A stretch of 32,364 nt of DNA from Candidatus Uhrbacteria bacterium RIFOXYB2_FULL_45_11 (lineage in GTDB: Bacteria; Patescibacteriota; Patescibacteriia; UBA9934; GWF2-40-263), in NCBI GenBank assembly GCA_001791715.1, contig MGFD01000030.1, forward strand, positions 9,246 through 41,609, given 5' to 3'. Below, piece after piece: positions 1,727-27,272 of the stretch. Each line of letters starts with the position of its first letter. Positions within the stretch are counted from its first letter, which is position 1. The notes beneath the pieces are model-generated. The model worked only from the letters and a program-made list of their open reading frames with translations, made no database searches and had not been told where the DNA came from. The position numbers and the translations under genes were made by a program.

Positions 1727-1808
1727 AGGGGAAGGTTTGAAATGTCGGAAACCTGCCTGCCGGCAGGCAGGGGTCGGAGAGGTTTGAATGTCGGAAAGGT
1801 CGAGGTGT
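1727..1808 (-). repeat. leader element H1: 9-nt units (TCGGAAAGG / TTTGAAATG family) flanking a perfect 20-nt palindrome, directly abutting the ATG
   Basis: The + strand reads cat|AGGGGAAGG|TTTGAAATG|TCGGAAACC, then CCTGCCTGCCGGCAGGCAGG (1752-1771), then TCGGAGAGG|TTTGAATG|TCGGAAAGG|TCGAGGTGT. The same units occur at 25646-25681. Confidence 0.8.
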
Positions 1809-1814
1809 GAGGGG

Positions 1815-2701: not shown

Positions 2702-3535
2702 ATGAGTGAATACAATCCAGAGCGTGCACAACAAGAACGCATTGAGGCTGAACGCATGGAGTATAAAATAATCTCTCGGCGTGTTTTGAACGATCTTTTC
2801 AAAGACGTGCTTGATGCCCGTGAACTTGAAAGAAGATTGATGCTTGTTGATCGGGTAAAATTCGTTACACATGATCAGATGGATGTCATTGCAAAAAGCA
2901 ACCCGCAAGATGCGGGTGCTGACGGATTGATCCAGTATGAGGTAAGTGAATCTGAGGTTCGTCGGCTACCAATTGTTCTTCATTCTTCGTCGCGTGTAGA
3001 AACATTGCATACATTGGTGCATGAGGGCACTCATCTCATGACTCCTGAGTCTGTACTTGTTACGAACATAATAGCAGAACCGGATGAAGAAACTTTTTCA
3101 GATTATGTTGGAGGATTTCGGTTTGAACGTAACAGAAAAACAAAACAAATTGATCTGATGTCGATCCATAAAGATACACCAGCTCGTTTTCTCTTTTGGG
3201 AATCGGTTACGGATTGGATTGCGGAACTTGGACTTGAGAGTGAGATGAGTGATCAGGAGAAAGAAGAACTTGCAATGAGTGGTTACTTTGAGCGCCATTG
3301 GATCGATTACTTGATGCGTAAGTCGCCCGATGCACCTGGATTGATGCAAGCAATTAAAGAATCTTATGCAGCAGGGAGCGAAGATTCTTTACGTTGGTGC
3401 CTTCAAAAACAGTTAGATGTCCAGGATGATCATTTTTATGATGCACTTATAAAGATCATCGGACGCGATCGAACAGATGAAAAGCGGGTCGATGATTGGA
3501 TGCAAGTCGTTGATGACGCGTTTAAGTCGTCCTAA
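2702..3535 (+). CDS. hypothetical protein with an HExxH motif (putative zinc metalloprotease-like)
   Basis: 277-aa ORF containing LHTLVHEGTHLMTPE. No family recognised by eye. Confidence 0.6.
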   Translation: MSEYNPERAQQERIEAERMEYKIISRRVLNDLFKDVLDARELERRLMLVDRVKFVTHDQMDVIAKSNPQDAGADGLIQYEVSESEVRRLPIVLHSSSRVETLHTLVHEGTHLMTPESVLVTNIIAEPDEETFSDYVGGFRFERNRKTKQIDLMSIHKDTPARFLFWESVTDWIAELGLESEMSDQEKEELAMSGYFERHWIDYLMRKSPDAPGLMQAIKESYAAGSEDSLRWCLQKQLDVQDDHFYDALIKIIGRDRTDEKRVDDWMQVVDDAFKSS

Positions 3536-9423: not shown

Positions 9424-9428
9424 TTTTT

Positions 9429-9506
9429 GTGTCATTCCGACCGACCAAAGGGAGCGGAGGAATCTCGCGTGTACGAGAGATCCCTCGGCTGCGCTCGGGA
9501 TGACAA
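9429..9506 (+). repeat. P1: GTCAT...ATGAC palindromic element directly upstream of the next start codon
   Basis: It shares tgtcat..., atctcgcgtKtacgWgagatccctcggctgcgct and cgggatgaca with 27163-27272. Outer arms gtcattccga / ctcgggatgac. Confidence 0.8.
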
Positions 9507-9514
9507 AGTAACGT

Positions 9515-10687: not shown

Positions 10688-10764
10688 GCGCTCGTAGCTC
10701 AGCTGGATAGAGCATCAGCTTGCGGAGCTGAGGGTCGTAGGTTCAAATCCTGCCGGGCGCACCA
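10688..10764 (+). tRNA. tRNA-Arg (anticodon GCG), CCA encoded
   Basis: GCGCTCG TA GCTC AGCTGGATA GAGC A TCAGC TTGCGGA GCTGA GGGTC GTAGG TTCAAAT CCTGC CGGGCGC A CCA. A20, C35 and G36 fit Arg identity. Confidence 0.85.
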
Positions 10765-10772
10765 TAACAATT

Positions 10773-11102
10773 ATGGCTTGGGTATATATATTAAAAAGCG
10801 ATCTTGATGGTCGTTTTTATGTTGGAAGTACGACGGATATTGAGCGTAGAATTATTCAGCATGAACGAAATCAAACACCATCAACATATCGAATGCAGGC
10901 GCATAAACTGGTTTTCTCTCAAGAATATTCAACGCTTCGTGAAGCTCGAGAAATTGAGAGGCGACTTAAAAAACTGAAACGAAAAGATTATTTACAAAAG
11001 ATTATAAATGAGGGTTTGATTCGAATGCGACCTGGCGAGAGCCCCGACGCGCCGAATGATAAACTGTCGGCGGTCGGGGTCCCGACAATCGACAGTATTT
11101 AA
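10773..11102 (+). CDS. small GIY-YIG nuclease-domain protein
   Basis: MAWVYILKSDLDGRFYVGSTTDIERRIIQHE... The ATG lies only 8 nt after the tRNA-Arg CCA. The stop codon sits in the loop of a hairpin (arms at 11081-11094 and 11105-11119). Confidence 0.8.
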   Translation: MAWVYILKSDLDGRFYVGSTTDIERRIIQHERNQTPSTYRMQAHKLVFSQEYSTLREAREIERRLKKLKRKDYLQKIINEGLIRMRPGESPDAPNDKLSAVGVPTIDSI

Positions 11103-11120
11103 CGTGTCGATTCGTCGGGA

Positions 11121-11157
11121 CTGAGGGTCGTAGGTTCAAATCCTGCTGGGCGCACCA
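11121..11157 (+). repeat. duplicated 3' half of tRNA-Arg (direct repeat of 10728-10764)
   Basis: ctgagggtcgtaggttcaaatcctgcYgggcgcacca. 36 of 37 positions are identical to the 3' part of the intact tRNA. Confidence 0.9.
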
Positions 11158-11164
11158 CAAAAAA

Positions 11165-17110: not shown

Positions 17111-18505
17111 TTAGCAGTGTGCGGGAAACGGACAATTTGGATAACTGCATCGACAATAGGTGTCTGCTTTACTTTTTAGCTCAAAGTGCCAGATTTCTTC
17201 TGCGTATCTTACAAAGCCGGCTTGTGTCATGATTTGCGACAAGAGTTGCGCACCATCTTTGTATTTTTGGTTTTGTTGATTGGTGGTGTTAAAGGATGGA
17301 TCTGTAAGAGCCGTACTTCCTTTTTTCAACATGATGTCGATTGCAATACCGCTTCCGTGATTGGATCCACCTGGATAGGCGATTGCTGTTCCGATGCCGG
17401 CGATCTTTTTTTCATCTCCAGTTGCAATGACATCGCAAACCATTTCAATTTGTCGCTTGAGTGGACGATAGGCTGAAATAAGATGAATGGTATAAGCGCT
17501 ATCCATGGACTGTGCAATTTCTCCTGCTTTTTTTAACGCATCTTGCACTTCTTTTGTCACTTGTCCTTTTGGTCCGCTTCCACCTTCATTTACAAAACCG
17601 GGTGCATTTGGTGCTTTTGAAACAAGATTCGGATCGATTGTTTTTGGATTGCTTGATGGCCATGTGTTTTTATCCGTCGCACAAAGTGTTTTACATGCTT
17701 CGGGGTTGCCGCAAACACGTATAGAGCTTGCACTTATTCCACTTGAAGCCATTTGTTCGTCCGACACAACATCTCCTTTGTGTTCTGGAACTTCGACCGT
17801 TTGTACATTTTGAAGTTCAATCGTTTTCATGAGGGTGAGTTGTGGATTGGATGTATACAAAATAAGATAAACCCCAAGAAGCAGGACAAGCCCTGTGAGG
17901 GCGTTTGTGATGCGTGTTTTTCCTTTAGAAACATCCCCGCCACTTGCGGCCATCACATATTGCAATCCTCCAACCATCACCATGACGATTGCGATGGTGA
18001 TGGAGGCGAAAATGAGGAATTTATAGACAGCCGATAGGTAATCAGCGAGGAAGGATGACTTTACAGATGTGGTCGTTGCGATGGCTTTTGAAAAGGAGAG
18101 ACCTGGAATGGGAACGTTGAGGATTGGGGTCGTGGTGGCAGAAGGAGTTTTTGAAGCGGAGGTGTCTGAGCTTGAATCGGTTTTTGATGCAAGAAATGCA
18201 TTATGTTTTTTTTGACAGGAGGATGCAAGAATTTCACCTTCCGTACCATCTGCAAATTCACTTGATGCGAAACTTTTTCCGACGTCTTTTACACAAACTT
18301 CTTTACAACTGTTTGTAGATTGTTGTGAGACAGAAAGAGAAACCGCGCGACAATCTGTGTCTTTTGTTGTGCACACGCATGTTCCGTCTGCAAACGCAAA
18401 CGAGGATGGAAGTGAAAAACCCATCAAGACAAAAAAGAAGATGAGATGTTTTGTGAAACGAAAAATAGAAGCAAGATTATTTTTGTGCAGCAAGTTCGTC
18501 TGCAA
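17111..18505 (-). CDS. exported protein: the same Cys-rich and T4SS-pilin-like module fused to a VanY/M15B-type D-Ala-D-Ala carboxypeptidase domain
   Basis: DGTCVCTT..DC; TPILNVPIPGLSFS; IVMVMVGGLQYVMAA; NPQLTLMKTIELQNVQTVE. C-terminus has SAYRPLKRQ, GGSNHGSGIAIDI and EEIWHFE. The start is uncertain (TTG 18505 or 18493) and overlaps the dsbA-like stop. Confidence 0.75.
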   Translation of the reverse strand: MQTNLLHKNNLASIFRFTKHLIFFFVLMGFSLPSSFAFADGTCVCTTKDTDCRAVSLSVSQQSTNSCKEVCVKDVGKSFASSEFADGTEGEILASSCQKKHNAFLASKTDSSSDTSASKTPSATTTPILNVPIPGLSFSKAIATTTSVKSSFLADYLSAVYKFLIFASITIAIVMVMVGGLQYVMAASGGDVSKGKTRITNALTGLVLLLGVYLILYTSNPQLTLMKTIELQNVQTVEVPEHKGDVVSDEQMASSGISASSIRVCGNPEACKTLCATDKNTWPSSNPKTIDPNLVSKAPNAPGFVNEGGSGPKGQVTKEVQDALKKAGEIAQSMDSAYTIHLISAYRPLKRQIEMVCDVIATGDEKKIAGIGTAIAYPGGSNHGSGIAIDIMLKKGSTALTDPSFNTTNQQNQKYKDGAQLLSQIMTQAGFVRYAEEIWHFELKSKADTYCRCSYPNCPFPAHC

Positions 18506-19133
18506 TCGCTTTTGTTAAATCATTCGCAGAAGGTACGCCCACAATGGATGTGCTGTTGATAAAAAGCGTTGGGGTTGCGAGGATTCCCAAATTCAGAGCC
18601 TCCTGAAGATTTTTTTGCACAATGGGTAATGTATCTTTTGAAGAAAGACATTTTGAGAACGTTGTTTCATTTAATCCAAGTTCTGTGCCAATTTGTGTAA
18701 ATTGTGTTTCGGATAAGTATGTTTGTCGATCAAACAAGGCAGATGCATATTCCCAAAATTTTCCTTGGCGCGCGGCACAGTGTGCGGCAACGGATGCGCT
18801 TGTTGCGTTTGGGTGTGCGGAATCGTTTGGCATGTCTTTCCAAACAAAACGTACATCATTTGGAAACGTCATGAGAGCGACATCGATAATCGGGTTGAGT
18901 TGTTTACAGGCCGCACACTCAAAATCGGAATAGACAACAAGAGTGACTTTTGCCTTTGGAGCTCCGCGTATCGGATCAACAAACGTGACGCTTGGGGTTT
19001 TTAGTGTGGCAGAATTTGTGTTCGTTATTTTTGGTTTTGGAAGCGGAATGGGTTGTGTGCGAATGAAAAAAAACACAAAAACCATGACGGTTAAAAAGCC
19101 AATCACGAGATATGCAAGGAGACGATCGCGCAT
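18477..19133 (-). CDS. DsbA-family thiol:disulfide oxidoreductase, membrane-anchored
   Basis: From ATG 19133: MRDRLLAYLVIGFLTVMVFVFFF (TM segment), FECAACKQ (CxxC) and a thioredoxin-fold remainder. The upstream 27 codons in the ORF track read through element H2. Confidence 0.8.
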   Translation of the reverse strand: MRDRLLAYLVIGFLTVMVFVFFFIRTQPIPLPKPKITNTNSATLKTPSVTFVDPIRGAPKAKVTLVVYSDFECAACKQLNPIIDVALMTFPNDVRFVWKDMPNDSAHPNATSASVAAHCAARQGKFWEYASALFDRQTYLSETQFTQIGTELGLNETTFSKCLSSKDTLPIVQKNLQEALNLGILATPTLFINSTSIVGVPSANDLTKAIADELAAQK

Positions 19134-19255
19134 AGGAATGTTTGAGGTACAGATTACAGATAAGACATACAGATATACAGATGGGAAAAAAGCAGACGTG
19201 CTCTCCGCCTTCATTTGTATATCTGTATGCCGCCATTTGTAATCTGTACCTCAAA
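19134..19255 (-). repeat. intercistronic element H2: TACAGAT-type heptamer arrays forming a long inverted repeat, abutting the dsbA-like ATG
   Basis: Arms at 19141-19184 and 19212-19255. An outer 18-bp and an inner 13-bp perfect helix are separated by an internal loop. Junction on the mRNA strand: CATTCCT-ATG. Confidence 0.8.
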
Positions 19256-19258
19256 TGT

Positions 19259-21473: not shown

Positions 21474-23951
21474 TTATTTTGATTTACGAATCGCGAGTTG
21501 TTTTTTCTCGATCGTAAGGGTGAATTTTTTGTTTTTTTCTTGTTTCAGCAGTCGTTCTGCGAGAATGGATTCCACGTGTGTCTGGATGAGTTGTCGGACA
21601 GAACGCGCGCCGGATTTTGGATCGAGTTTTTCAATCAAGTGGCGCGTGACAACATCCGGAATGGAAAGATGCACACCTTGTTCCATCATGCGGGTGGAGA
21701 ATTCATCTAATTGTTTGCGACAGATTTCGGACAGCACTTCATTCGACAATGGATTGAAGACACAGGTGTGATCAATACGATTCAACAGTTCTGGGCGGAA
21801 ACGTTCTTTGAGTTCTGTCTCGATGTCGCTCGACAAACGCTTCGAAGTCTCAACATCTCCTCCCGAAAAACCAATGCCGCCAGATTCGAATCGTTCAAGT
21901 CCGACGTTCGATGTGAGAATCACAATCGTGTTTCTAAAGTTTACCATTTTTCCGCTTGCGTCACATAGTTCTCCTTCTTCTAAAATTTGCAAAAGCAAAT
22001 TTTGCACATCACGGTGTGCTTTTTCAATCTCATCAAATAAAACGACGGCGTACGGTTTTTGTCGAACGCGATCCGTCAGATTCGCTTGTTCTTTGTAGCC
22101 GATGTATCCCGCCGGCGCACCGATCAACTTTGACATGGTGAAGCCTTCCGAATATTCCGACATGTCGAGGCGGATGAGGTGTTTGGATGTGTGGAAGAAT
22201 TGTTGAGCGATTCCGCGAGCAAGTTCTGTTTTTCCAACACCGGATGGGCCGAGGAATAAGAACGATGCAAGGGGACGCGCCGGATGCGCAACGCCCGTCT
22301 TTGCGCGCTTAAGCGCGTTTGCAACACGAGCAACAACCTCGGTTTGTCCAAGAACATGAGAAGCAAGTTTTGTTTCAATGTCCGCAAAGCTGGATTGATC
22401 TTTTGCGAGCAGATCATTGAGTGGAATGCGCAGCATGCGTGAGATTACGCGTGCGACATCTTCGTGATCAATCACGAGTCCGCTTGTTTCTTCTGTGGCG
22501 AAGGTGTGTGCTTTCAGTTCGCTCTGAAGGAGTTCTTCTGTTGCTTTGAGGTGCACTGCGTCCAAAAAACGTTCTTCAATCACCGCTTGTCGTTTGTCGT
22601 TCTTTAAAAGTTCGATTTGTTTTTCGATTGCTTTACGCTTTTCCTGTGGGCGCAGTTCCGTTGCGTGAATGCGTGCGGATGCGGCGGCTTCATCTAAAAG
22701 ATCAATCGCTTTGTCTGGGAGTCGGCGATCTGTGAGATATCGAGTTGAGAGTTTTACTGCATGTTCAATGGCGGCAGGTGCGATGCGTACTCCGTGAAAC
22801 GATTCGTAATGCGGCGCGATACCTTGAAGAATTTCGATGGCTGCTTCAACGGTTGGTTCTTCGACGGTGACAGTTTGAAAACGTCGTTCAAGTGCGCTGT
22901 CGGATTCAATATGTTTTTTATATTCCGCCTGCGTGGTTGCGCCAATACAATGAATGTCACCGCGTGCGAGGGCGGGTTTTAAAATGTTTGCGGCGTCCAT
23001 GGATCCGGAGGCTGCACCTGCGCCGACGATGGTGTGTAATTCATCGATAAATAAAATAACATCATCGGATTTACTTGCTTCGTCGATGAGTTGTCGCAAG
23101 CGTCCTTCAAATTCACCGCGATACATGGTTCCGGCGACGAGGAGCGCGAGGTCAAGTGCGAATACACGTTTGTTTTGGAGAAGGGGAGGAACCGTTCCTT
23201 CAAAAATACTTTTTGCAAGACCTTCAACAACGGCAGTCTTTCCAACACCCGGTTCGCCGACTAACAATGGATTATTTTTTGTACGGCGACACAAGATTTC
23301 CATCACGCGTTCAATCTCGGCTTCGCGCCCAATCACCGGATCGATCTTCTTTTGCATTTCGGGAGACGTAAGCTCTCTGGAAAAATAGGAGAGTGCTTGG
23401 AATTTTTCTGGTGGTTTTTCTTCTGGTGTTGCGGTTGCGATTTCTTGAAGCAGTCCGAGTTCGTCGGGTTTCATGACTTCTGTCATTTCTGGAAACTTGG
23501 AAGTATTTTTAAGAACAAGAGAGAGCTGTTCACGCAAATATTTTAAATCGATGTTTTGATCTTTCAGAAACGTCAAAATAGACGGAAGTTCAATCTGCGC
23601 GAGTCCAGAGAGCAAGTGTTCTGTGCCAATGTAGCGGTGGCCGTAAATGTTTGCGGTGAGAACGGCTTTTTCAACTGCGCGTTTTGCGTCATCGGATAAA
23701 TGAAGAATCATTCCGTCTGCGGTTGCAGGGAGTGTTTCTGTGACACGAATACTTCCGGCGATTTTTTTAAAATCCGCTTGTTGCATTCCTACCTTTTTTA
23801 AAATCTCTGCAGCGATACATCCTTTTTGCGTGCCAAGCGCCCAAAGCAAATGTTCCGGCAAAATGACCTGTTCATCTGTTTCAACCGCAAAACACAGCGC
23901 TCGCGTGAGCACTGTTTTCAAGTTCGAGGAAAATTTGTCGATAATGTCCAT
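21474..23951 (-). CDS. clpC: Clp ATPase, ClpC-type (two AAA+ modules, Clp_N repeat, short middle domain)
   Basis: GEPGVGKTAV and GPSGVGKTEL Walker A motifs. 825 aa, ClpC-like rather than ClpB-like in length. Confidence 0.85.
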   Translation of the reverse strand: MDIIDKFSSNLKTVLTRALCFAVETDEQVILPEHLLWALGTQKGCIAAEILKKVGMQQADFKKIAGSIRVTETLPATADGMILHLSDDAKRAVEKAVLTANIYGHRYIGTEHLLSGLAQIELPSILTFLKDQNIDLKYLREQLSLVLKNTSKFPEMTEVMKPDELGLLQEIATATPEEKPPEKFQALSYFSRELTSPEMQKKIDPVIGREAEIERVMEILCRRTKNNPLLVGEPGVGKTAVVEGLAKSIFEGTVPPLLQNKRVFALDLALLVAGTMYRGEFEGRLRQLIDEASKSDDVILFIDELHTIVGAGAASGSMDAANILKPALARGDIHCIGATTQAEYKKHIESDSALERRFQTVTVEEPTVEAAIEILQGIAPHYESFHGVRIAPAAIEHAVKLSTRYLTDRRLPDKAIDLLDEAAASARIHATELRPQEKRKAIEKQIELLKNDKRQAVIEERFLDAVHLKATEELLQSELKAHTFATEETSGLVIDHEDVARVISRMLRIPLNDLLAKDQSSFADIETKLASHVLGQTEVVARVANALKRAKTGVAHPARPLASFLFLGPSGVGKTELARGIAQQFFHTSKHLIRLDMSEYSEGFTMSKLIGAPAGYIGYKEQANLTDRVRQKPYAVVLFDEIEKAHRDVQNLLLQILEEGELCDASGKMVNFRNTIVILTSNVGLERFESGGIGFSGGDVETSKRLSSDIETELKERFRPELLNRIDHTCVFNPLSNEVLSEICRKQLDEFSTRMMEQGVHLSIPDVVTRHLIEKLDPKSGARSVRQLIQTHVESILAERLLKQEKNKKFTLTIEKKQLAIRKSK

Positions 23952-23967
23952 AAAGGTGGAAATATTG

Positions 23968-24070
23968 GTAGATACGGATTACAGATGAATACAGATAGGG
24001 ATGACGTATCTGAAAAACGTTTTTCGGAACCGAATATCTCCATCTGTATTCATCTGTAATCCGTATCTAC
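23968..24070 (-). repeat. intercistronic element H3: perfect 29-bp inverted repeat between htpX and clpC
   Basis: gtagatacggattacagatgaatacagat (23968-23996) pairs with its exact complement at 24042-24070. The 45-nt spacer holds the 14-nt palindrome gaaaaacgtttttc (24012-24025). Confidence 0.9.
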
Positions 24071-24076
24071 ACACGT

Positions 24077-24973
24077 TTACAAACCAGCTTTCTTTAATCT
24101 CGCGATACGTTCTTCGATTGGTGGATGAGTGCTGAACATCTGTTCAAACTTTTTTGTGACGTGTGGGTCGAATGGATTTGCGAGGAAGAGGTGGGCTGTT
24201 GCGTGGTTTGCTTTTGACATGGGTTGGTCTTGTACGCTGATTTTTTCGAGTGCGCGAATGAGTCCATCTGGATAACGTGTGAGCAAACATCCGGATGCGT
24301 CTGCGAGATATTCGCGTTGGCGTGAAACCGCGAGTTTGATAAGTTGGGCAAAAATAGGGGAGAGAATCGCAAGCACGATTCCAACGATCAGGATGATTCC
24401 CGCACTACTGTTGTTGTCATTGTCTCGAGAGCCGCGGCCAAAGAAAAACGATCGTGTCATCATGTCAGATAAAAGCAAGACGACTCCGACAAGAACAACC
24501 ACAATGGTCATGACGCGAATATCGTAATTTCCAATGTGTGAGAGTTCATGCGCAAGAACACCTTCCAATTCTTGTCGATCGAGCGCTTGAAGGAGTCCGG
24601 TTGTGACGGCGACCGACGCGTGTTTTGGATCTCGGCCTGTTGCAAAGGCGTTCATGGCAGAGTCTTGGATCACGTAAATTTTTGGGGTTGGGAGTCCGGC
24701 GGTAATCGCGAGATTCTCGACGAGTCGAAACAGTTCTGGGTTATCTTGTTTTTCGATCGGTTTTGCACCAGACGCGGCAAGCGCAACAGAATCACCTTGA
24801 AAATATCCAACAAGCGTCATGACGGTGGAAATAATCACGGCAAGAAAAATGCCAGAAAAGGCATCACCCATCCAAAGACCAAATGCATAGCCGAGCAAAA
24901 TAATCACGACCGAGAAGAGTGAGATCAGAAACCAGGTTTTGTATTTGTTCGCAGAGATTTGGTCGTAGAGCAT
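24077..24973 (-). CDS. htpX: zinc metalloprotease HtpX
   Basis: VLAHELSHIGN (HExxH), four TM segments and C-terminal STHPPIEERIARL. Confidence 0.9.
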   Translation of the reverse strand: MLYDQISANKYKTWFLISLFSVVIILLGYAFGLWMGDAFSGIFLAVIISTVMTLVGYFQGDSVALAASGAKPIEKQDNPELFRLVENLAITAGLPTPKIYVIQDSAMNAFATGRDPKHASVAVTTGLLQALDRQELEGVLAHELSHIGNYDIRVMTIVVVLVGVVLLLSDMMTRSFFFGRGSRDNDNNSSAGIILIVGIVLAILSPIFAQLIKLAVSRQREYLADASGCLLTRYPDGLIRALEKISVQDQPMSKANHATAHLFLANPFDPHVTKKFEQMFSTHPPIEERIARLKKAGL

Positions 24974-25081
24974 AGGGGGAAGTAGAAAGTAGAGAGTAGA
25001 AAGTAGAGAGGAGATAGAAACGTTTTTTAAAATAGCTGCACCAACTAAAACCTTTCTACTTTCTACTTTTCCCTTTCTACT
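24974..25081 (-). repeat. intercistronic element H4: GTAGARA heptamer arrays in inverted orientation, filling the lemA-htpX spacer
   Basis: cat|AGGGGGA|AGTAGAA|AGTAGAG|AGTAGAA|AGTAGAG|AGG. The 31-nt arms at 24981-25011 and 25051-25081 pair at 26 of 31 positions. The spacer contains GAAACGTTTTTT. Confidence 0.85.
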
Positions 25082-25084
25082 TTT

Positions 25085-25636
25085 TTAAAACTTTACTTCT
25101 GGAACCACTTTTTCTGCTTCGTCCATGTCAAAAAATTCTTTTGCGGTAAAGGCAAATGTTCCGGCGATCATGTTGACCGGGAAGGATTGTAAACGTGTGT
25201 TATATTCACGAACGTTTCCGTTGTAAAAGCGACGTGAAGCTTGGATTTTGTCTTCCGCGTCGCGGAGTTCGTGTTGGAGTTGCAAAAAGTTTTGTGAGGC
25301 TTGAAGAGCTGGGTAGCTTTCTGAAACCGCAAACAAAGACTTGAGAGTGCTTGTCAGTACGCCTTCAGCTTGTGCATGTTCTGGAAGCGTGTGCGCGCCC
25401 ATGGCCGCGGAGCGAGCTTTTGTCACGTTTTCAAAGACGCTTGATTCGTGTGAAGCGTATCCTTTTACGGCATTCACCAAGTTTGGAATCAGATCATAAC
25501 GGCGCTTCATTTGAACTTCAATGTCAGACCACGCTTCGTCTACACGGTTTCTGAGCGTGATAAGACCGTTATATGATAAGATGAGCCAGAGTCCGACGAG
25601 GGCGAGAACAATGATAACGATCCAAAGGGTAGACAT
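25085..25636 (-). CDS. lemA: LemA family protein
   Basis: N-terminal TM, then YNGLITLRNRVDEAWSDIEVQMKRRYDLIPNLV..., typical of LemA. Confidence 0.9.
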   Translation of the reverse strand: MSTLWIVIIVLALVGLWLILSYNGLITLRNRVDEAWSDIEVQMKRRYDLIPNLVNAVKGYASHESSVFENVTKARSAAMGAHTLPEHAQAEGVLTSTLKSLFAVSESYPALQASQNFLQLQHELRDAEDKIQASRRFYNGNVREYNTRLQSFPVNMIAGTFAFTAKEFFDMDEAEKVVPEVKF

Positions 25637-25743
25637 AGGGGAATGTTGGAAAGGTTTGAAATGTCGGAAAGGTCGGAAAGGAAACGTTGTAAAAACGTTT
25701 TGGATTACCTTTCAAACATTTCAGACCTTTCCGACCTTTCAGA
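25637..25743 (-). repeat. leader element H5: four plus four inverted 9-nt units (TCGGAAAGG family), abutting the lemA ATG
   Basis: AGGGGAATG|TTGGAAAGG|TTTGAAATG|TCGGAAAGG|TCGGAAAGG, then a 26-nt spacer (AAACGTT-GTAAA-AACGTTT), then CCTTTCAAA|CATTTCAGA|CCTTTCCGA|CCTTTCAGA. Confidence 0.85.
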
Positions 25744-25760
25744 CTAAGTATTACGTTTAA

Positions 25761-25789
25761 ATTCTACGAAATTTACAAGCTTTCGTCAA
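25761..25789 (-). promoter_or_regulatory. sigma70-like promoter for lemA (TTGACG-17 nt-TAGAAT)
   Basis: Minus strand: TTGACG (25789-25784), a 17-nt spacer, TAGAAT (25766-25761). It places H5 inside the transcribed leader. Confidence 0.5.
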
Positions 25790-25794
25790 AAAAT

Positions 25795-27138
25795 ATGGAG
25801 ATACCAAAACACATTTTTCGTGCCTATGATATTCGCGGACTTCTCGCTGAAGTGACGCCTGATATTGCTCGCGTAGTCGGGATGGCGCTTGTTTCAAAAA
25901 CAGGGGCAAAAACCGTGATTGTCGGGCGCGATATGCGTGCAACGAGTCCAGAGCTTGAGCAAGCGGCGATCGAAGGAATTACGTCGATGGGCGCAAACGT
26001 CATCGCAATCGGACTTTGCAGTACATCGATGTTCAATTTTGCGGTTTCAAGCCAAGAACATATTGACGCTGGCATCATGATCACCGCCTCACACAACCCA
26101 CCAGAATTTAATGGAATGAAAATGGCACTCGCAAGCGGATTGCCGATTTCTGGTCTTGAGATTCTTGAAGAGGTGGAGCGTTCCCCCTCTCCTTTCGAAG
26201 GAGAGGGCAGGGGAGAGGTGTCCCATCAAGATATTCTTGGTGCTTACATCGACAAATGTCTCGCTGTCGAGAACTTACCCGATCTCTCTGGAACAAAACT
26301 CGTTATCGACTACGGAAACGGCATGGGAGCAATGTCGGTTCGTGAACTTTGTAAGCGTCTGAAGATCGAAGTGGTCGAACTTTATCCAGAACCAGATGCA
26401 CGTTTTCCAAACCATGAAGCGAATCCGGCAAAAGAAGAAACACTCGCGGATGTGAAAGCGGCTGTTGTTCGAGAAGGCGCAGATTTCGGAATCGCCCTCG
26501 ATGGCGATGCAGATCGTGTAGGGTTTATCGACAATGAAGGAGTTTCGTTGCGCGGTGATCTTACGCTCGCGCTTCTCGCGAAAGAGACGCTCTCGAGAAA
26601 ACCTGGATCAAAAGTTGTTGTCGCACCAAATCAAAGTTGGACCACGTTTGATTCGATCACAGAAAACGGTGGCGTTCCTCTTGAATGTCGTATTGGTCGC
26701 AAATTTGTCGTCGAGGCGGTGCAAAAACAAGGTGCGGTTCTTGGTGGGGAGGTTTCGAGCCATTTCTTCTTTGAAGAATTCCATGGGCTTGAAGCCGTCG
26801 ATCATGCGATCGTTCGCATCTTGTCGATCTGGAAACAATCCGGACAATCATTCGCCGATCTCGTGCGTCCATATCGCGCATATACAAATAGTGGCGAGGT
26901 GAATATTGAAGTGCACAATAAAGAACAGGTTCTGAGCAAGCTCGAACAGTATGCGGGGACAGCATCGAAAGTGAATAAGCTCGATGGAATTCGCTGTGAA
27001 TTTGATCGTGACTGGTGGTTTATTGTGCGACCATCGAATACGGAGCCATTACTTCGATTGATTGTGGAAGCAAAGACGCCGGAACTGATGGTACAGAAAC
27101 GCGACGAATTGGTTGCTTTGATTCAGACGAACGGGTAA
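25795..27138 (+). CDS. phosphomannomutase/phosphoglucomutase (alpha-D-phosphohexomutase)
   Basis: GIMITASHNPPEFNGMKM active-site loop, DGDADR metal loop, GGEVSSH sugar loop. 447 aa. Confidence 0.85.
   Translation: MEIPKHIFRAYDIRGLLAEVTPDIARVVGMALVSKTGAKTVIVGRDMRATSPELEQAAIEGITSMGANVIAIGLCSTSMFNFAVSSQEHIDAGIMITASHNPPEFNGMKMALASGLPISGLEILEEVERSPSPFEGEGRGEVSHQDILGAYIDKCLAVENLPDLSGTKLVIDYGNGMGAMSVRELCKRLKIEVVELYPEPDARFPNHEANPAKEETLADVKAAVVREGADFGIALDGDADRVGFIDNEGVSLRGDLTLALLAKETLSRKPGSKVVVAPNQSWTTFDSITENGGVPLECRIGRKFVVEAVQKQGAVLGGEVSSHFFFEEFHGLEAVDHAIVRILSIWKQSGQSFADLVRPYRAYTNSGEVNIEVHNKEQVLSKLEQYAGTASKVNKLDGIRCEFDRDWWFIVRPSNTEPLLRLIVEAKTPELMVQKRDELVALIQTNG
26183..26220 (+). repeat. in-frame palindromic mini-element D within the phosphohexomutase gene
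   Basis: CCCCCTCTCCTT-TCG-AAGGAGAGGG-C-AGGGGAGAGGTG, translated as SPSPFEGEGRGEV. Same architecture as the recG copies. Confidence 0.8.
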
Positions 27139-27162
27139 TCTTTTATTGTTCTTGTTTATATT

Positions 27163-27272
27163 TGTCATCTTGAGCGACCGTTTTATGTCTAGTCGAAAGA
27201 TCTCGCGTTTACGTGAGATCCCTCGGCTGCGCTAAGAGGCTGCTTCGCAGTGCGCTCCGCTCGGGATGACAC
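27163..27272 (+). repeat. P2: GTCAT...ATGAC palindromic element directly upstream of tyrS
   Basis: It shares both ends and a 33-nt core with P1 and carries an extra 26-nt internal segment (aagaggctgcttcgcagtgcgctccg). It ends 8 nt before the tyrS ATG. Confidence 0.8.

Follow-up and report, generated by a model that had tools for sequence, protein, structure and literature searches.

Repeat-armed palindromic elements in the leader and spacers of the lemA-htpX-clp operon of a Candidatus Uhrbacteria bacterium

The window analysed in this work is the whole stretch of 32,364 nt taken from contig MGFD01000030.1 (GCA_001791715.1) of Candidatus Uhrbacteria bacterium RIFOXYB2_FULL_45_11, and the lemA leader element under study, together with its promoter, lies within positions 25637-25789 of it. 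Three genes run together on the minus strand: lemA (25085..25636, 183 aa; Pfam LemA, E = 3.9e-59), whose homologues come from Candidatus Uhrbacteria and other Patescibacteria; htpX, which encodes an M48 peptidase (24077..24973; Pfam Peptidase_M48, E = 1.8e-35); and a gene for a Clp/Hsp100-family AAA+ chaperone (21474..23951; Pfam Clp_N, AAA_2 and ClpB_D2-small). A phosphoglucomutase/phosphomannomutase gene (PGM/PMM; Pfam PGM_PMM domains I-IV) is transcribed divergently on the plus strand (25795..27138). Its ATG lies 5 nt away from the -35 hexamer of lemA, and this divergent arrangement was retained across the relatives. No transposase-like ORF was noticed among the annotated genes of the window.

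The sigma-70-type promoter of lemA, TTGACG-17-TAGAAT (25761..25789, minus strand), was the best match in a scan of 18-28 kb, agreeing at 10 of 12 positions. The -35 hexamer, the spacing and the TAnnAT -10 hexamer were kept in the relatives L081-L088, L209 and L211, with the element present or absent, and the promoter was conserved in all nine distinct close-relative sequences. Since the element lies downstream of this conserved promoter, it would be transcribed as a leader of ~118 nt, with a start probably near 25754. The sequence-only reading, made before this analysis from the letters of the DNA, had proposed both this promoter and a leader of about 115 nt, and was borne out on both points. 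For the divergent PGM gene, the promoter scan gave no convincing match within the lemA element.

The trinucleotide CAT at 25634-25636 is the complement of the lemA ATG. Directly after it, the plus strand of 25637-25681 consists of five 9-nt units, AGGGGAATG, TTGGAAAGG, TTTGAAATG, TCGGAAAGG and again TCGGAAAGG. A 26-nt spacer, AAACGTTGTAAAAACGTTTTGGATTA (25682-25707), separates this array from four inverted units, CCTTTCAAA, CATTTCAGA, CCTTTCCGA and CCTTTCAGA (25708-25743). The arrays, spacer and inverted units were thus as first described, and period-9 arrays were recovered by TRF at 25648-25681 (3.8 copies) and 25707-25744 (4.2 copies). The array had also been described as in phase with the start codon, which is true; the phase is automatic, however, because the array abuts the ATG. 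In the leader RNA, which is read from the minus strand, the TRF-defined 5' arm (25708..25744) is purine-rich, with the units GUCUGAAAG, GUCGGAAAG, GUCUGAAAU and GUUUGAAAG, and shows CCTTTC units on the plus strand. It pairs with a G-poor, C/U-rich 3' arm (25637..25681, from TRF and autocorrelation) made of the five 9-nt units and ending CAUUCCCCU right at the AUG. Between the arms, sequence reading and folding gave an A/U-rich loop with a 7-bp mini-hairpin, AAACGUU...AACGUUU (25682..25707). The unit core G-U-x-x-G-A-A-A is kept throughout the element, and AAACGTTT is shared by its loop and those of the elements at 24015 and 25018.

The repetition was far above background. The lag-9 autocorrelation of 25637-25681 was 0.75, the highest among all 45-nt windows in 32 kb (mean 0.28, sd 0.08), and in 2000 shuffles of the intergenic region 0.75 was not attained once at any lag from 6 to 12. 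A repeat search gave inverted arms of 26-36 nt with a complementarity of 78-88%. The leader RNA was predicted to fold at -41.5 kcal/mol (z = -6.1; 0/200 shuffles equally stable) into an imperfect hairpin of 28 to 36 bp, interrupted by a mismatch about every 9 nt. An intrinsic terminator was considered for the element and rejected: it lies downstream of a promoter and between divergent genes, it has no U-run, its 3' arm passes into CCCCUAUG, and it was absent from the terminator scan. The earlier view that it is not a plain terminator was therefore upheld. At gathering score, only tRNAs matched Rfam 15 within the window, and over 23800-25900 the sub-threshold matches were to miRNA-precursor models only, as for generic long hairpins. 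A leader mini-ORF was also rejected. Its AUG in the 5' arm is invariant in four homologues, yet the ORF has 4, 5 or 24 codons or runs on, and it is not conserved because its length varies in this way. A metagenome scan with the 14-mer ATGTCGGAAAGGTC, common to two copies in the window, returned at least 120 chance matches, none with neighbouring units.

Elements had also been noted at 1727, 19134, 23968 and 24974; all of them exist, lie on the minus strand and form a set with the lemA element. The lemA-to-htpX spacer is filled by an element with hairpin arms of 7-nt AAGUAGA / UCUACUU units (24974..25084; fold -36.9 kcal/mol, z = -4.4), and in element-free strains this spacer is 8 nt (L081/L084) or 6 nt (L209/L210) long. 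The htpX-to-clp spacer is filled by a near-perfect 45-bp hairpin of TACAGAT-type units (23952..24076; -67.4 kcal/mol, z = -10.4); at this junction L081, L085 and L086 have no more than a C/U-rich 9-10-nt array, and other relatives have unrelated sequence. TACAGAT-type units are found again in the element before a DsbA-like gene (19134..19258; -64.3 kcal/mol, z = -9.1), a junction where the spacer of L081 is 5 nt. An ORF call at 18477-19214 extends through this last element and, in another case of a gene caller misled by repeat elements, the LemA of one relative was called 38 aa too long. The copy in the leader of a RibD_C/DHFR-like gene (1727..1810; gene family by Pfam) is a single-orientation version with no inverted pair, in which the pyrimidine units CCTTTCCGAC/ATTTCAAAC stand in direct orientation around a GC hairpin, CCTGCCTGCCGGCAGGCAGG. 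The last 24 nt of the lemA 3' arm (CGACATTTCAAACCTT..CCCCTATG), minus one 9-nt unit, also precede this RibD_C-family gene, and the elements at 1727 and 25637 thereby share units across two loci of the window.

The predicted stems have 28 pairs in the consensus lemA-leader helix and 34-51 pairs in the sister elements. Intercistronic copies begin 0-8 nt past the preceding stop codon and end 4-25 nt short of the next AUG; in the lemA leader, ~14 nt separate the stem base from the 5' end, and 4 nt lie between it and the AUG. Added together, the unpaired sequences on either side of a stem come to 8-25 nt, compared with spacers of 5-8 nt in element-free strains.

Pairing was examined in four homologous lemA leaders (the window, L085, L211 and L082), which align at 76% column identity with an invariant AAAACG loop core. 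They share a common 28-pair helix with 92% of cells paired, and eight of its pairs were changed on both sides (GAAAGG:CCUUUC to GAGAGG:CCUCUC); this pairing was matched by 0/500 shuffles, and slid controls were 36-57% paired. The two arrays can therefore pair, as had been supposed, and the search for covariation in related genomes that the sequence-only reading had recommended found pairing kept through compensatory changes. A second compensatory change was found in the lemA-htpX element, whose L088 homologue is 88% identical and carries a U-A to C-G replacement. A test for RNA-level selection acting through sense-strand G.U pairs gave the opposite result. The antisense hairpin was more stable than the sense one in 9 of 10 elements (-51.0 against -39.2 kcal/mol for the lemA leader), and the sense mismatches were mostly A.C. 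Selection for the strongest possible sense RNA helix is thus not apparent, and maintenance of a palindrome at the DNA level would explain the covariation equally well. Moreover, single-arm arrays without a complementary partner occur at the same junctions (the copy at 1727 in the window, the htpX-clp junctions of L081, L085 and L086, and L001) and fold at about 0 kcal/mol (0 to -5), so the hairpin cannot be the sole selected feature. The order with the purine arm first was tried as a gene-relative orientation and rejected, because the polarity of a palindrome is the same on both strands and the rule fails in L027, L033 and L052. It is a clade-level bias only, which fits G-poor start regions: the G-poor arm adjoins the start codon in every one of the 6-7 unit families found in the window clade.

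Close relatives differed strongly in what stands before lemA. Strains L081 and L084 share an identical LemA protein (P0001) and have a 66-nt intergenic region from which the element is absent; with the same protein, L082 and L083 have a 154-nt region holding a diverged homologous element on a different unit. The lemA element is dispensable, as close relatives live without it. Filled and empty leaders were unalignable between the -10 hexamer and the ATG, the spacers being replaced wholesale, and comparison of filled with empty leaders revealed no target-site duplication, no defined terminal inverted repeats and no clean empty sites. The lemA leader of L082 is 88% identical, loop included, to the dsbA spacer of L086, and the first 28 nt of the dsbA element in the window recur, with 27 of them identical, where the lemA-htpX spacer of L087 begins, directly after lemA. 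Because near-identical elements occupy other junctions in other strains, the element can be described as a portable, rapidly replaced cassette; as with MITE or Correia elements, presence/absence polymorphism among strains is combined with copies at several loci.

These observations are arguments for the main rival explanation, in which the elements are neutral or selfish repeats (slippage arrays, inverted duplications or a MITE-like hairpin) without regulatory function, which accumulate where a compact genome tolerates them and persist in hairpin form as structurally inert sequence. Near-identical strains differ by presence or absence and by full replacement of the units, the same element sits at non-orthologous junctions, its loss is tolerated, and an antisense fold at least as stable as the sense one is what a DNA-level palindrome would give. 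There is also a precedent in the long simple-sequence repeats of 5-11 nt, mostly heptamers, which are described as driven by slippage (Mrazek 2007, as summarised in PMC4679880).

The same turnover weighs against a binding-site array for a sequence-specific DNA- or RNA-binding protein, that is, an iteron or operator resembling the heptads of omega repressor or CtsR, perhaps serving a heat-shock repressor. Such a role would suit the short units in direct and inverted order ahead of stress genes, the unit core conserved within the element and the enrichment of elements at heat-shock-type genes. However, the units are wholly different between strains with identical LemA and ~95% identical flanks, and they differ even between the junctions of one operon. 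The arrays lie downstream of the promoter or between genes instead of over the -35/-10 region, and the lemA element lacks the conserved, promoter-overlapping unit expected of an omega-, CtsR- or MetJ-type array; a 9-bp spacing would set successive sites on different helix faces; and a search for the CIRCE operator gave no match within the window. We consider this protein-site idea, which the sequence-only reading had entertained, very unlikely, as strains with the same LemA have no element or have different units.

The context of translation start bears on two further explanations. An SD-like site was found in 1 of 64 genes of the clade, and its upstream regions are G-poor with U at -1 in 83%; the clade does not use Shine-Dalgarno sites, in agreement with the published finding that about half of Parcubacteria have lost the anti-SD motif (PMC9297842). 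The SD-like GAAAGG array and the missing separate SD had been offered as signs of translational control. That argument lost its footing, because the lack of a separate SD is the norm in a clade without SD sites and not a sign of masking. By partition-function folding, the predicted accessibility of lemA positions -15..+6 was 0.43-0.50 across 10 to 55 C, and the element-free leader gave 0.5 against 0.43 with the element. An unaltered start-site accessibility is again what a neutral repeat would show. An RNA thermometer, by which the start region of lemA would become open upon heat shock, would agree with the heat-shock-like gene context of lemA-htpX-clp and with a helix mismatched about every 9 nt. 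Against it, the predicted MFE of the leader at 55 C is still -25.8 kcal/mol, accessibility stays flat over the whole range, the sister stems of 45-51 bp are even more stable, there is no SD site to mask, and no Rfam thermometer family matched. With no weak helix that masks an SD or AUG and melts in the physiological range, the temperature switch suggested earlier is extremely improbable.

Close to the original idea is a masked ribosome landing pad, in which the C/U array at the AUG acts as an SD-independent enhancer recognised by S1 or a cold-shock-domain protein, and the purine arm keeps it hidden as long as no helicase, nuclease or upstream translation has opened the stem. The SD-less clade with its G-poor upstream regions fits this proposal, as do the single-arm C/U arrays directly before the AUG (htpX-clp junctions, and 1727 in the window), which are predicted to be unstructured (P(unpaired) 0.8). 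With the stem base 0-8 nt past the upstream stop, a terminating ribosome would open the 3' arm at the AUG. Binding of S1, Csp or CsrA has been proposed for TAACTGA arrays that abut start codons (MacGregor 2015, PMC4679880). On the other hand, lemA has no upstream ORF whose translation could open its stem, the array units of AT-rich relatives are not C/U-rich (AATTTTA, TGAAAAT, TGGCTAA), and the G-rich arm adjoins the start codon in at least three distant lineages (L027, L033, L052). We therefore judge the masked landing pad to be quite unlikely.

The placement of arrays was surveyed in 80 Patescibacteria species-level loci, all picked around lemA and with crude first-ATG gene calls, where an array was defined as tandem 6- to 12-nt units ending -6 to +40 nt before a start. 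Arrays were found at 18 of 194 LemA/HtpX/Clp/GroES/GroEL genes and at 8 of 583 others (OR 7.4, p = 1.6e-6); dnaK, grpE, hrcA, ftsH and lon are absent from the surveyed lemA loci, and the enrichment refers to the genes named. It persisted when only array-positive loci were counted (OR 10, p = 3e-7) and when only spacers of 40 nt or more were (OR 11.7, p = 1e-7). Junction lengths were bimodal, either 0-15 nt or 45-130 nt built of repeats, and many Patescibacteria arrays stop 0-17 nt ahead of a long ORF. The sequence-only reading had made its case depend on conservation of the array architecture upstream of lemA, and here the outcome was divided. The architecture is patchy in close relatives, and no comparable inverted array was seen by eye upstream of lemA in the 29 of the 80 species-level relatives so read (LemA <= 71% identical); by the TRF criterion, however, an upstream array precedes 7 of 83 lemA genes of the whole set. 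A 7- to 12-fold enrichment at proteostasis genes across species with unrelated units, which survives restriction to longer spacers and to array-positive loci, speaks against neutral or selfish repeats, as does the G-poor arm adjoining the start codon in every unit family of the window clade. That the same three junctions of a small genome have been filled repeatedly and independently is an argument that the elements are more than just tolerated. Absence of any function is possible, though in our view doubtful.

Among known systems, several resemble the elements in part. The cyanobacterial STRR heptamers are related long simple-sequence repeats. Known REP, BIME and REPIN hairpins, such as the malE-malF REP, bar the way to 3' exonucleases and cause the genes of one operon to be expressed at different levels. 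Like them, the Uhrbacteria elements are imperfect intra-operon palindromes between a stop and the next start codon; REPs, however, are conserved palindromes of ~35 nt with many identical copies and a RAYT transposase, whereas the Uhrbacteria arms are variable arrays, the unit sequences differ between elements and no RAYT gene was seen in the window. Long imperfect stem-loops in every intercistronic spacer and leader are also a feature of the RNase III signals of the phage T7 early genes, which are conserved unique sequences with proven cleavage; for the Uhrbacteria stems, RNase III cleavage is conjecture. The Correia or NEMIS (CREE) hairpins of Neisseria are bound or cleaved by RNase III and alter the expression of adjacent genes (PMC2649163). 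With these and other MITEs the elements have in common that they are palindromes of ~100-150 bp in transcribed intergenic DNA, present or absent according to strain and found at several loci, and they are probably likewise co-transcribed with neighbouring genes as long hairpins. Correia elements differ in having unique-sequence terminal inverted repeats, TA target duplication and hundreds of near-identical copies, while the Uhrbacteria arms are tandem arrays with strong divergence and no visible duplication or insertion boundary.

The likeness to start-proximal heptamer and other simple-sequence arrays is also close. The lemA element has at least about three tandem copies of a unit within 5-11 nt, above chance, and is a non-coding array a few nt from a start codon without SD. 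TAACTGA heptamer arrays abut start codons in Beggiatoaceae, Cyanobacteria and Bacteroidetes (MacGregor 2015, PMC4679880). In both cases tandem non-coding units of 5-11 nt end a few nt from SD-less start codons, and the units are lineage-specific, with S1, Csp and CsrA as proposed binding proteins. The Uhrbacteria arrays differ in that they usually form inverted pairs giving 28-51-bp hairpins and that their units vary by junction and strain, where the other systems use one heptamer genome-wide. The host is a Patescibacteria lineage, and the Patescibacteria arrays are biased to proteostasis genes, in contrast to the absence of a functional pattern in MacGregor's (PMC4679880). The lemA element is accordingly a variant of known repeat classes, the LSSR/STRR heptamers and the MITE/REP hairpins.

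It is well supported that the lemA element is one copy of a lineage-specific palindromic repeat family with arms made of tandem arrays of 7-9-nt units, laid out as a purine-rich arm, an A/T-rich loop and a G-poor pyrimidine arm. It is equally well supported that such elements take the place of transcribed spacers that are normally tiny, in the lemA-htpX-clp stress operon and at a few other genes, and that they turn over very fast between strains and behave as portable cassettes, because the same element appears at different junctions. The explanation which we favour overall, with a probability of about 0.45, is a portable repeat-armed palindrome family in which each copy is a self-contained stem-loop acting on mRNA stability or processing. 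The element would be transcribed from the conserved lemA promoter and fold into a long imperfect stem-loop. Since the stem runs from near the 5' end or the stop codon to near the AUG, the insertion would be structurally self-contained; it would bring the start codon close to the preceding stop codon or, in the leader, to the 5' end, and leave the G-poor, SD-independent start region with its U(-1)AUG about as open as in element-free strains. The likely effect would be on mRNA fate, through protection of the 5' end or of intercistronic 3' ends, or alternatively through a site of RNase III-type double-stranded cleavage that divides the operon mRNA. RNase III needs roughly 20 bp of double-stranded RNA, and the predicted stems of 28-51 bp within the transcript exceed this length. 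Control of processing or stability by the lemA leader is thus a plausible candidate function, whereas SD masking, thermosensing and termination form no part of the proposed action. Slippage is the probable origin of the arrays, and the two arms probably stay complementary through arm-to-arm correction by quasipalindrome template switching.

CPR/Patescibacteria are mostly uncultured, and their gene regulation and translation start are largely uncharted. The locus shows a Uhrbacteria clade whose translation starts have no SD sites and lie in G-poor sequence with U at -1, and a stress operon in which hypervariable hairpin cassettes built of repeats occupy precisely the gaps from stop to start codon; similar architectures from unrelated units recur at the same chaperone/protease junctions across the phylum. 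A broader and, in our opinion, unlikely proposal is that SD-less Patescibacteria carry an undescribed phylum-wide post-transcriptional module of repeat-built leaders and spacers, either single G-poor arrays or repeat-armed hairpins, recruited repeatedly from unrelated units to lemA-htpX-clp and groES-groEL as a stress regulon that depends on architecture and not on sequence. Its readers may be, for example, RNase III, S1, a helicase or the terminating ribosome, and if true it would be a new kind of heat-shock or proteostasis control. The elements also matter for annotation, as gene callers are misled by them. Should they be selfish, they would represent a repeat class that changes unusually fast within very small genomes; should they be functional, they would offer a first point of entry to the post-transcriptional control of CPR/Patescibacteria and a natural case of regulation by architecture rather than by sequence.

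The lemA element is real and not an ordinary feature. Its identity as a portable palindrome of tandem repeats that evolves quickly, is transcribed as the lemA leader and belongs to a set punctuating the lemA-htpX-clp operon is well supported. It occupies the 158-bp intergenic region (25637-25794) between lemA (25085-25636, - strand) and the divergent phosphoglucomutase gene (PGM, 25795-27138, + strand). Read on the + strand, five 9-nt units (25637-25681) abut the complement of the lemA ATG, followed by a 26-nt spacer containing the small palindrome AAACGTT/AACGTTT (25682-25707) and four inverted units (25708-25743). Period-9 arrays were detected by TRF at 25648-25681 and 25707-25744, an inverted-repeat search gave arms of 26-36 nt with 78-88% complementarity, and at lag 9 the first array has an autocorrelation of 0.75, the highest among all 45-nt windows in the 32 kb and a value matched by 0 of 2000 shuffles. 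Outside the arrays lies TTGACG-17-TAGAAT (25789..25761, - strand), which scored best as a promoter over 10 kb, and the arrangement described in the sequence-only reading was thus confirmed. If transcription begins near 25754, the leader has about 118 nt, and its predicted fold is a single long imperfect hairpin (-41.5 kcal/mol, z = -6.1), in line with the earlier proposal that the two arrays could pair. Only 5 nt separate the PGM start codon from the lemA -35 hexamer, and no convincing match to a promoter for PGM appeared on the + strand of 25745-25794; should PGM transcription begin further left, the mRNA would carry the element in the stabler-folding orientation (-51 kcal/mol).

An intrinsic terminator was ruled out, as the first reading had held, because the element has no U-tract and is positioned behind the promoter. 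An RNA thermometer was ruled out on predicted start accessibility: the mean unpaired probability from -15 to +6 of the lemA AUG was 0.43-0.50 across 10-55 C (0.48-0.64 in the element-free leader of a relative, L081), and the lemA stem still has -25.8 kcal/mol at 55 C, with the sister stems even stabler. The element matched no Rfam family, and no CIRCE operator is present in the window.

Three further spacers in the window are filled by elements of the same architecture: lemA-to-htpX (24974-25084, 7-nt AAGTAGA units, -36.9 kcal/mol), htpX-to-clp (23952-24076, TACAGAT-type units, -67.4 kcal/mol) and the spacer before a DsbA-like gene (19134-19258, -64.3 kcal/mol). The proposed set of the lemA element with those at 1727, 19134, 23968 and 24974 therefore stands in architecture for the last three; the 1727 element has units and a last 24 nt before the ATG identical to those of the lemA leader, but its direct-orientation units flank a GC hairpin and form no long stem. 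The intercistronic stems start 0-8 nt past the stop codon and finish 4-25 nt before the next AUG, and their unpaired flanks total 8-25 nt, resembling the 5-8-nt spacers of element-free strains. In these predicted folds, the elements appear as self-contained insertions drawing stop and start codons together.

ORF and gene callers were misled by the repeat elements: the mechanical ORF of the DsbA-like gene (18477-19214) runs 27 codons into the hairpin, its real start being 19133, and one relative's LemA (P0006) was annotated with 221 instead of 183 aa. A second dispersed palindrome of about 85 nt (TGTCATTCCGACCGA...GGAATCTCGCGT..ACG.GAGATCCCTCGGCTGCGCT...GGGATGACA; mean column identity 74%) is found in two window spacers (9424-9514 and 27160-27249) and inside the lemA leader of the relative L086 (9838-9935). 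Within 10688-11163, a 48-nt direct repeat (10723-10770 and 11116-11163, 90% identical) copies the 3' half of tRNA-Arg(gcg) beyond a 109-aa GIY-YIG ORF (10773-11102, Pfam E = 2.7e-14), an arrangement resembling a small GIY-YIG element that has inserted at the tRNA gene 3' end.

The window was placed in Candidatus Uhrbacteria (Patescibacteria/CPR) by LemA homologues, the closest database protein being 95% identical. PGM and lemA are likewise divergent in the 80 representatives taken at species level, whose LemA identity is 71% or less. In the 29 of these loci whose upstream 200 nt were inspected by eye, the intergenic region spans only about 70-100 nt, in which a TTGAC-type promoter is followed by a short, A/T-rich leader, and no comparable inverted array was seen upstream of lemA. 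All close relatives keep the lemA promoter (TTGACG, 17 nt, TAnnAT), and the stretch from the -10 hexamer to the ATG is entirely different among them. For example, one identical LemA protein (P0001) is encoded by loci with a 66-nt element-free intergenic region (L081, L084) and by loci with a 154-nt region carrying a diverged homologous element with a different unit, GCCTCTCTT (L082, L083). Units thus turn over between strains with identical proteins, and it is unlikely that they are sequence-specific protein sites, as the suggested protein-binding (iteron-like) module would require.

The window's unit recurs in the leader of L085 (LemA 91% identical), L211 (82%) has AACCTCTCT units, L086 (85%) has a different palindromic insert with a CCCTTAC array, and no array is present in L209/L210 (92%) and L088 (82%). 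The leader of L087 (94%; 3440-3515) has a purine 9-mer array of ACAAAGGCG-type units and then a non-complementary, telomere-like CCCTAA/CCCTAAT array, so the arrays of a single leader can turn over separately from each other. Element-free strains have a lemA-htpX spacer of 8 nt (L081/L084) or 6 nt (L209/L210); in others it is a repeat-armed hairpin of 88-112 nt. In L081, L085 and L086 the htpX-clp spacer consists purely of a partnerless C/U-rich 9-10-nt array (about 0 kcal/mol); the existence of such single-arm arrays makes a masked pyrimidine landing pad for S1 or Csp a possible role.

An alignment of the lemA leaders from the window, L085, L211 and L082 runs end to end with 76% column identity, the AAAACG loop core included. 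Their RNAalifold consensus helix has 28 pairs, in which 92% of cells are paired; both partners changed in 8 pairs, chiefly by A-U becoming G-C in every unit (GAAAGG:CCUUUC to GAGAGG:CCUCUC). Of 500 shuffles, 0 equalled these values, and slid registers were 36-57% paired. Covariation that keeps pairing while units change was thus found, and in L088 the lemA-htpX element, which has 88% identity to that of the window, shows a U-A to C-G double change. The antisense fold was predicted to be stabler than the sense fold in 9 of 10 elements (-51.0 vs -39.2 kcal/mol for the lemA leader), because sense mismatches are mostly A.C. The covariation therefore shows palindrome upkeep, not a sense RNA helix as the selected object, and DNA-level arm-to-arm correction would be expected to give the same signal. 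All four leaders have an AUG at one fixed place in the 5' arm (alignment columns 49-51; window ~25711-25713, - strand); its ORF has 4 codons in the window (MFER), 5 in L211 and 24 in L082 and runs on in L085, and since this length varies, the AUG is probably a by-product of the unit sequence.

Matching elements also occur at more than one junction. The L086 spacer preceding dsbA shares 88% identity, loop too, with the lemA leader of L082, and 27 of the first 28 nt of the window dsbA element match directly after lemA in L087; the elements are thus discrete cassettes copied or moved among junctions. Neither clean boundaries nor target duplication were found at filled versus empty sites of close relatives, and classical cut-and-paste insertion is therefore not demonstrated.

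TRF on 87 sequences (957 kb) gave 91 non-coding arrays of period 6-12, many ending 0-17 nt before the ATG of a long ORF, in many Patescibacteria lineages and with unrelated units (CCCTGTT, TATTTCG, TGGCTAA, AATTTTA). In length, the lemA-htpX, htpX-clp and groES-groEL junctions fall into two classes, 0-15 nt and 45-130 nt, and the long ones consist of single arrays or repeat-armed hairpins (GroEL and GroES identities confirmed). The chief alternative is a neutral or selfish repeat; the repeated, independent use of the same junctions and the enrichment of arrays at proteostasis genes speak against it. With a crude gene call (start at the first ATG), all loci selected around lemA and degenerate arrays missed by TRF, arrays ending -6 to +40 nt before the start were found over all sequences for 30/214 LemA/HtpX/Clp/GroES/GroEL genes vs 10/657 others (odds ratio 10.5, p 8e-12), and for 18/194 vs 8/583 in the 80 species representatives (7.4, p 1.6e-6), 18/47 vs 8/140 in array-positive species loci only (10.2, p 3e-7) and 18/117 vs 5/327 with an upstream spacer of at least 40 nt (11.7, p 1e-7). 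In each of the 6-7 unit families found in the window clade, the purine arm comes first and the G-poor arm lies beside the AUG, a polarity which for a palindrome is the same on both strands and which fails in three distant lineages (L027, L033, L052).

Start contexts were sampled for 64 genes of the window and three close relatives (L081, L085, L086). An SD-like site was found in only 1 of 64, G made up 14.7% of -30 to -1 (22% genome-wide) and, between -15 and -3, occurred in 3-12 genes at most positions, and T stood at -1 in 53. The anti-SD motif has been reported absent in about half of Parcubacteria (PMC9297842), which the scarcity of SD-like sites in this clade fits. These unusual start contexts suggest a Kozak-like, SD-independent initiation mode for this Uhrbacteria clade. 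The ending CATTCCCCT-ATG with no separate SD, read earlier as a sign of translational control, is thus the clade norm and no evidence of SD sequestration at lemA.

REP stabilisers and T7 RNase III sites are among the closest known systems. So are heptamer arrays near start codons and long simple-sequence repeats (MacGregor 2015, PMC4679880), such heptamers being known from Nostoc (bioRxiv 10.1101/2022.06.06.494920), and Correia elements, MITE-type hairpins that are RNase III substrates (PMC2649163). The lemA-type elements unite traits of these classes, namely tandem units, operon punctuation and long inverted arms. They differ in that their units are variable, their downstream genes are function-biased, and neither a partner transposase nor a target duplication is evident. 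Elements of this kind were not found described in the Patescibacteria/CPR literature searched in full text on intergenic tandem repeats and Shine-Dalgarno/translation initiation. We infer that the most economical mechanism would be a self-contained RNA stem-loop influencing mRNA fate, which could shield the mRNA 5' end, form a barrier between cistrons or be processed at an RNase III-type site. Such an element would leave the SD-independent, G-poor start context intact, and in operon spacers it may keep stop and start near each other for coupled translation.
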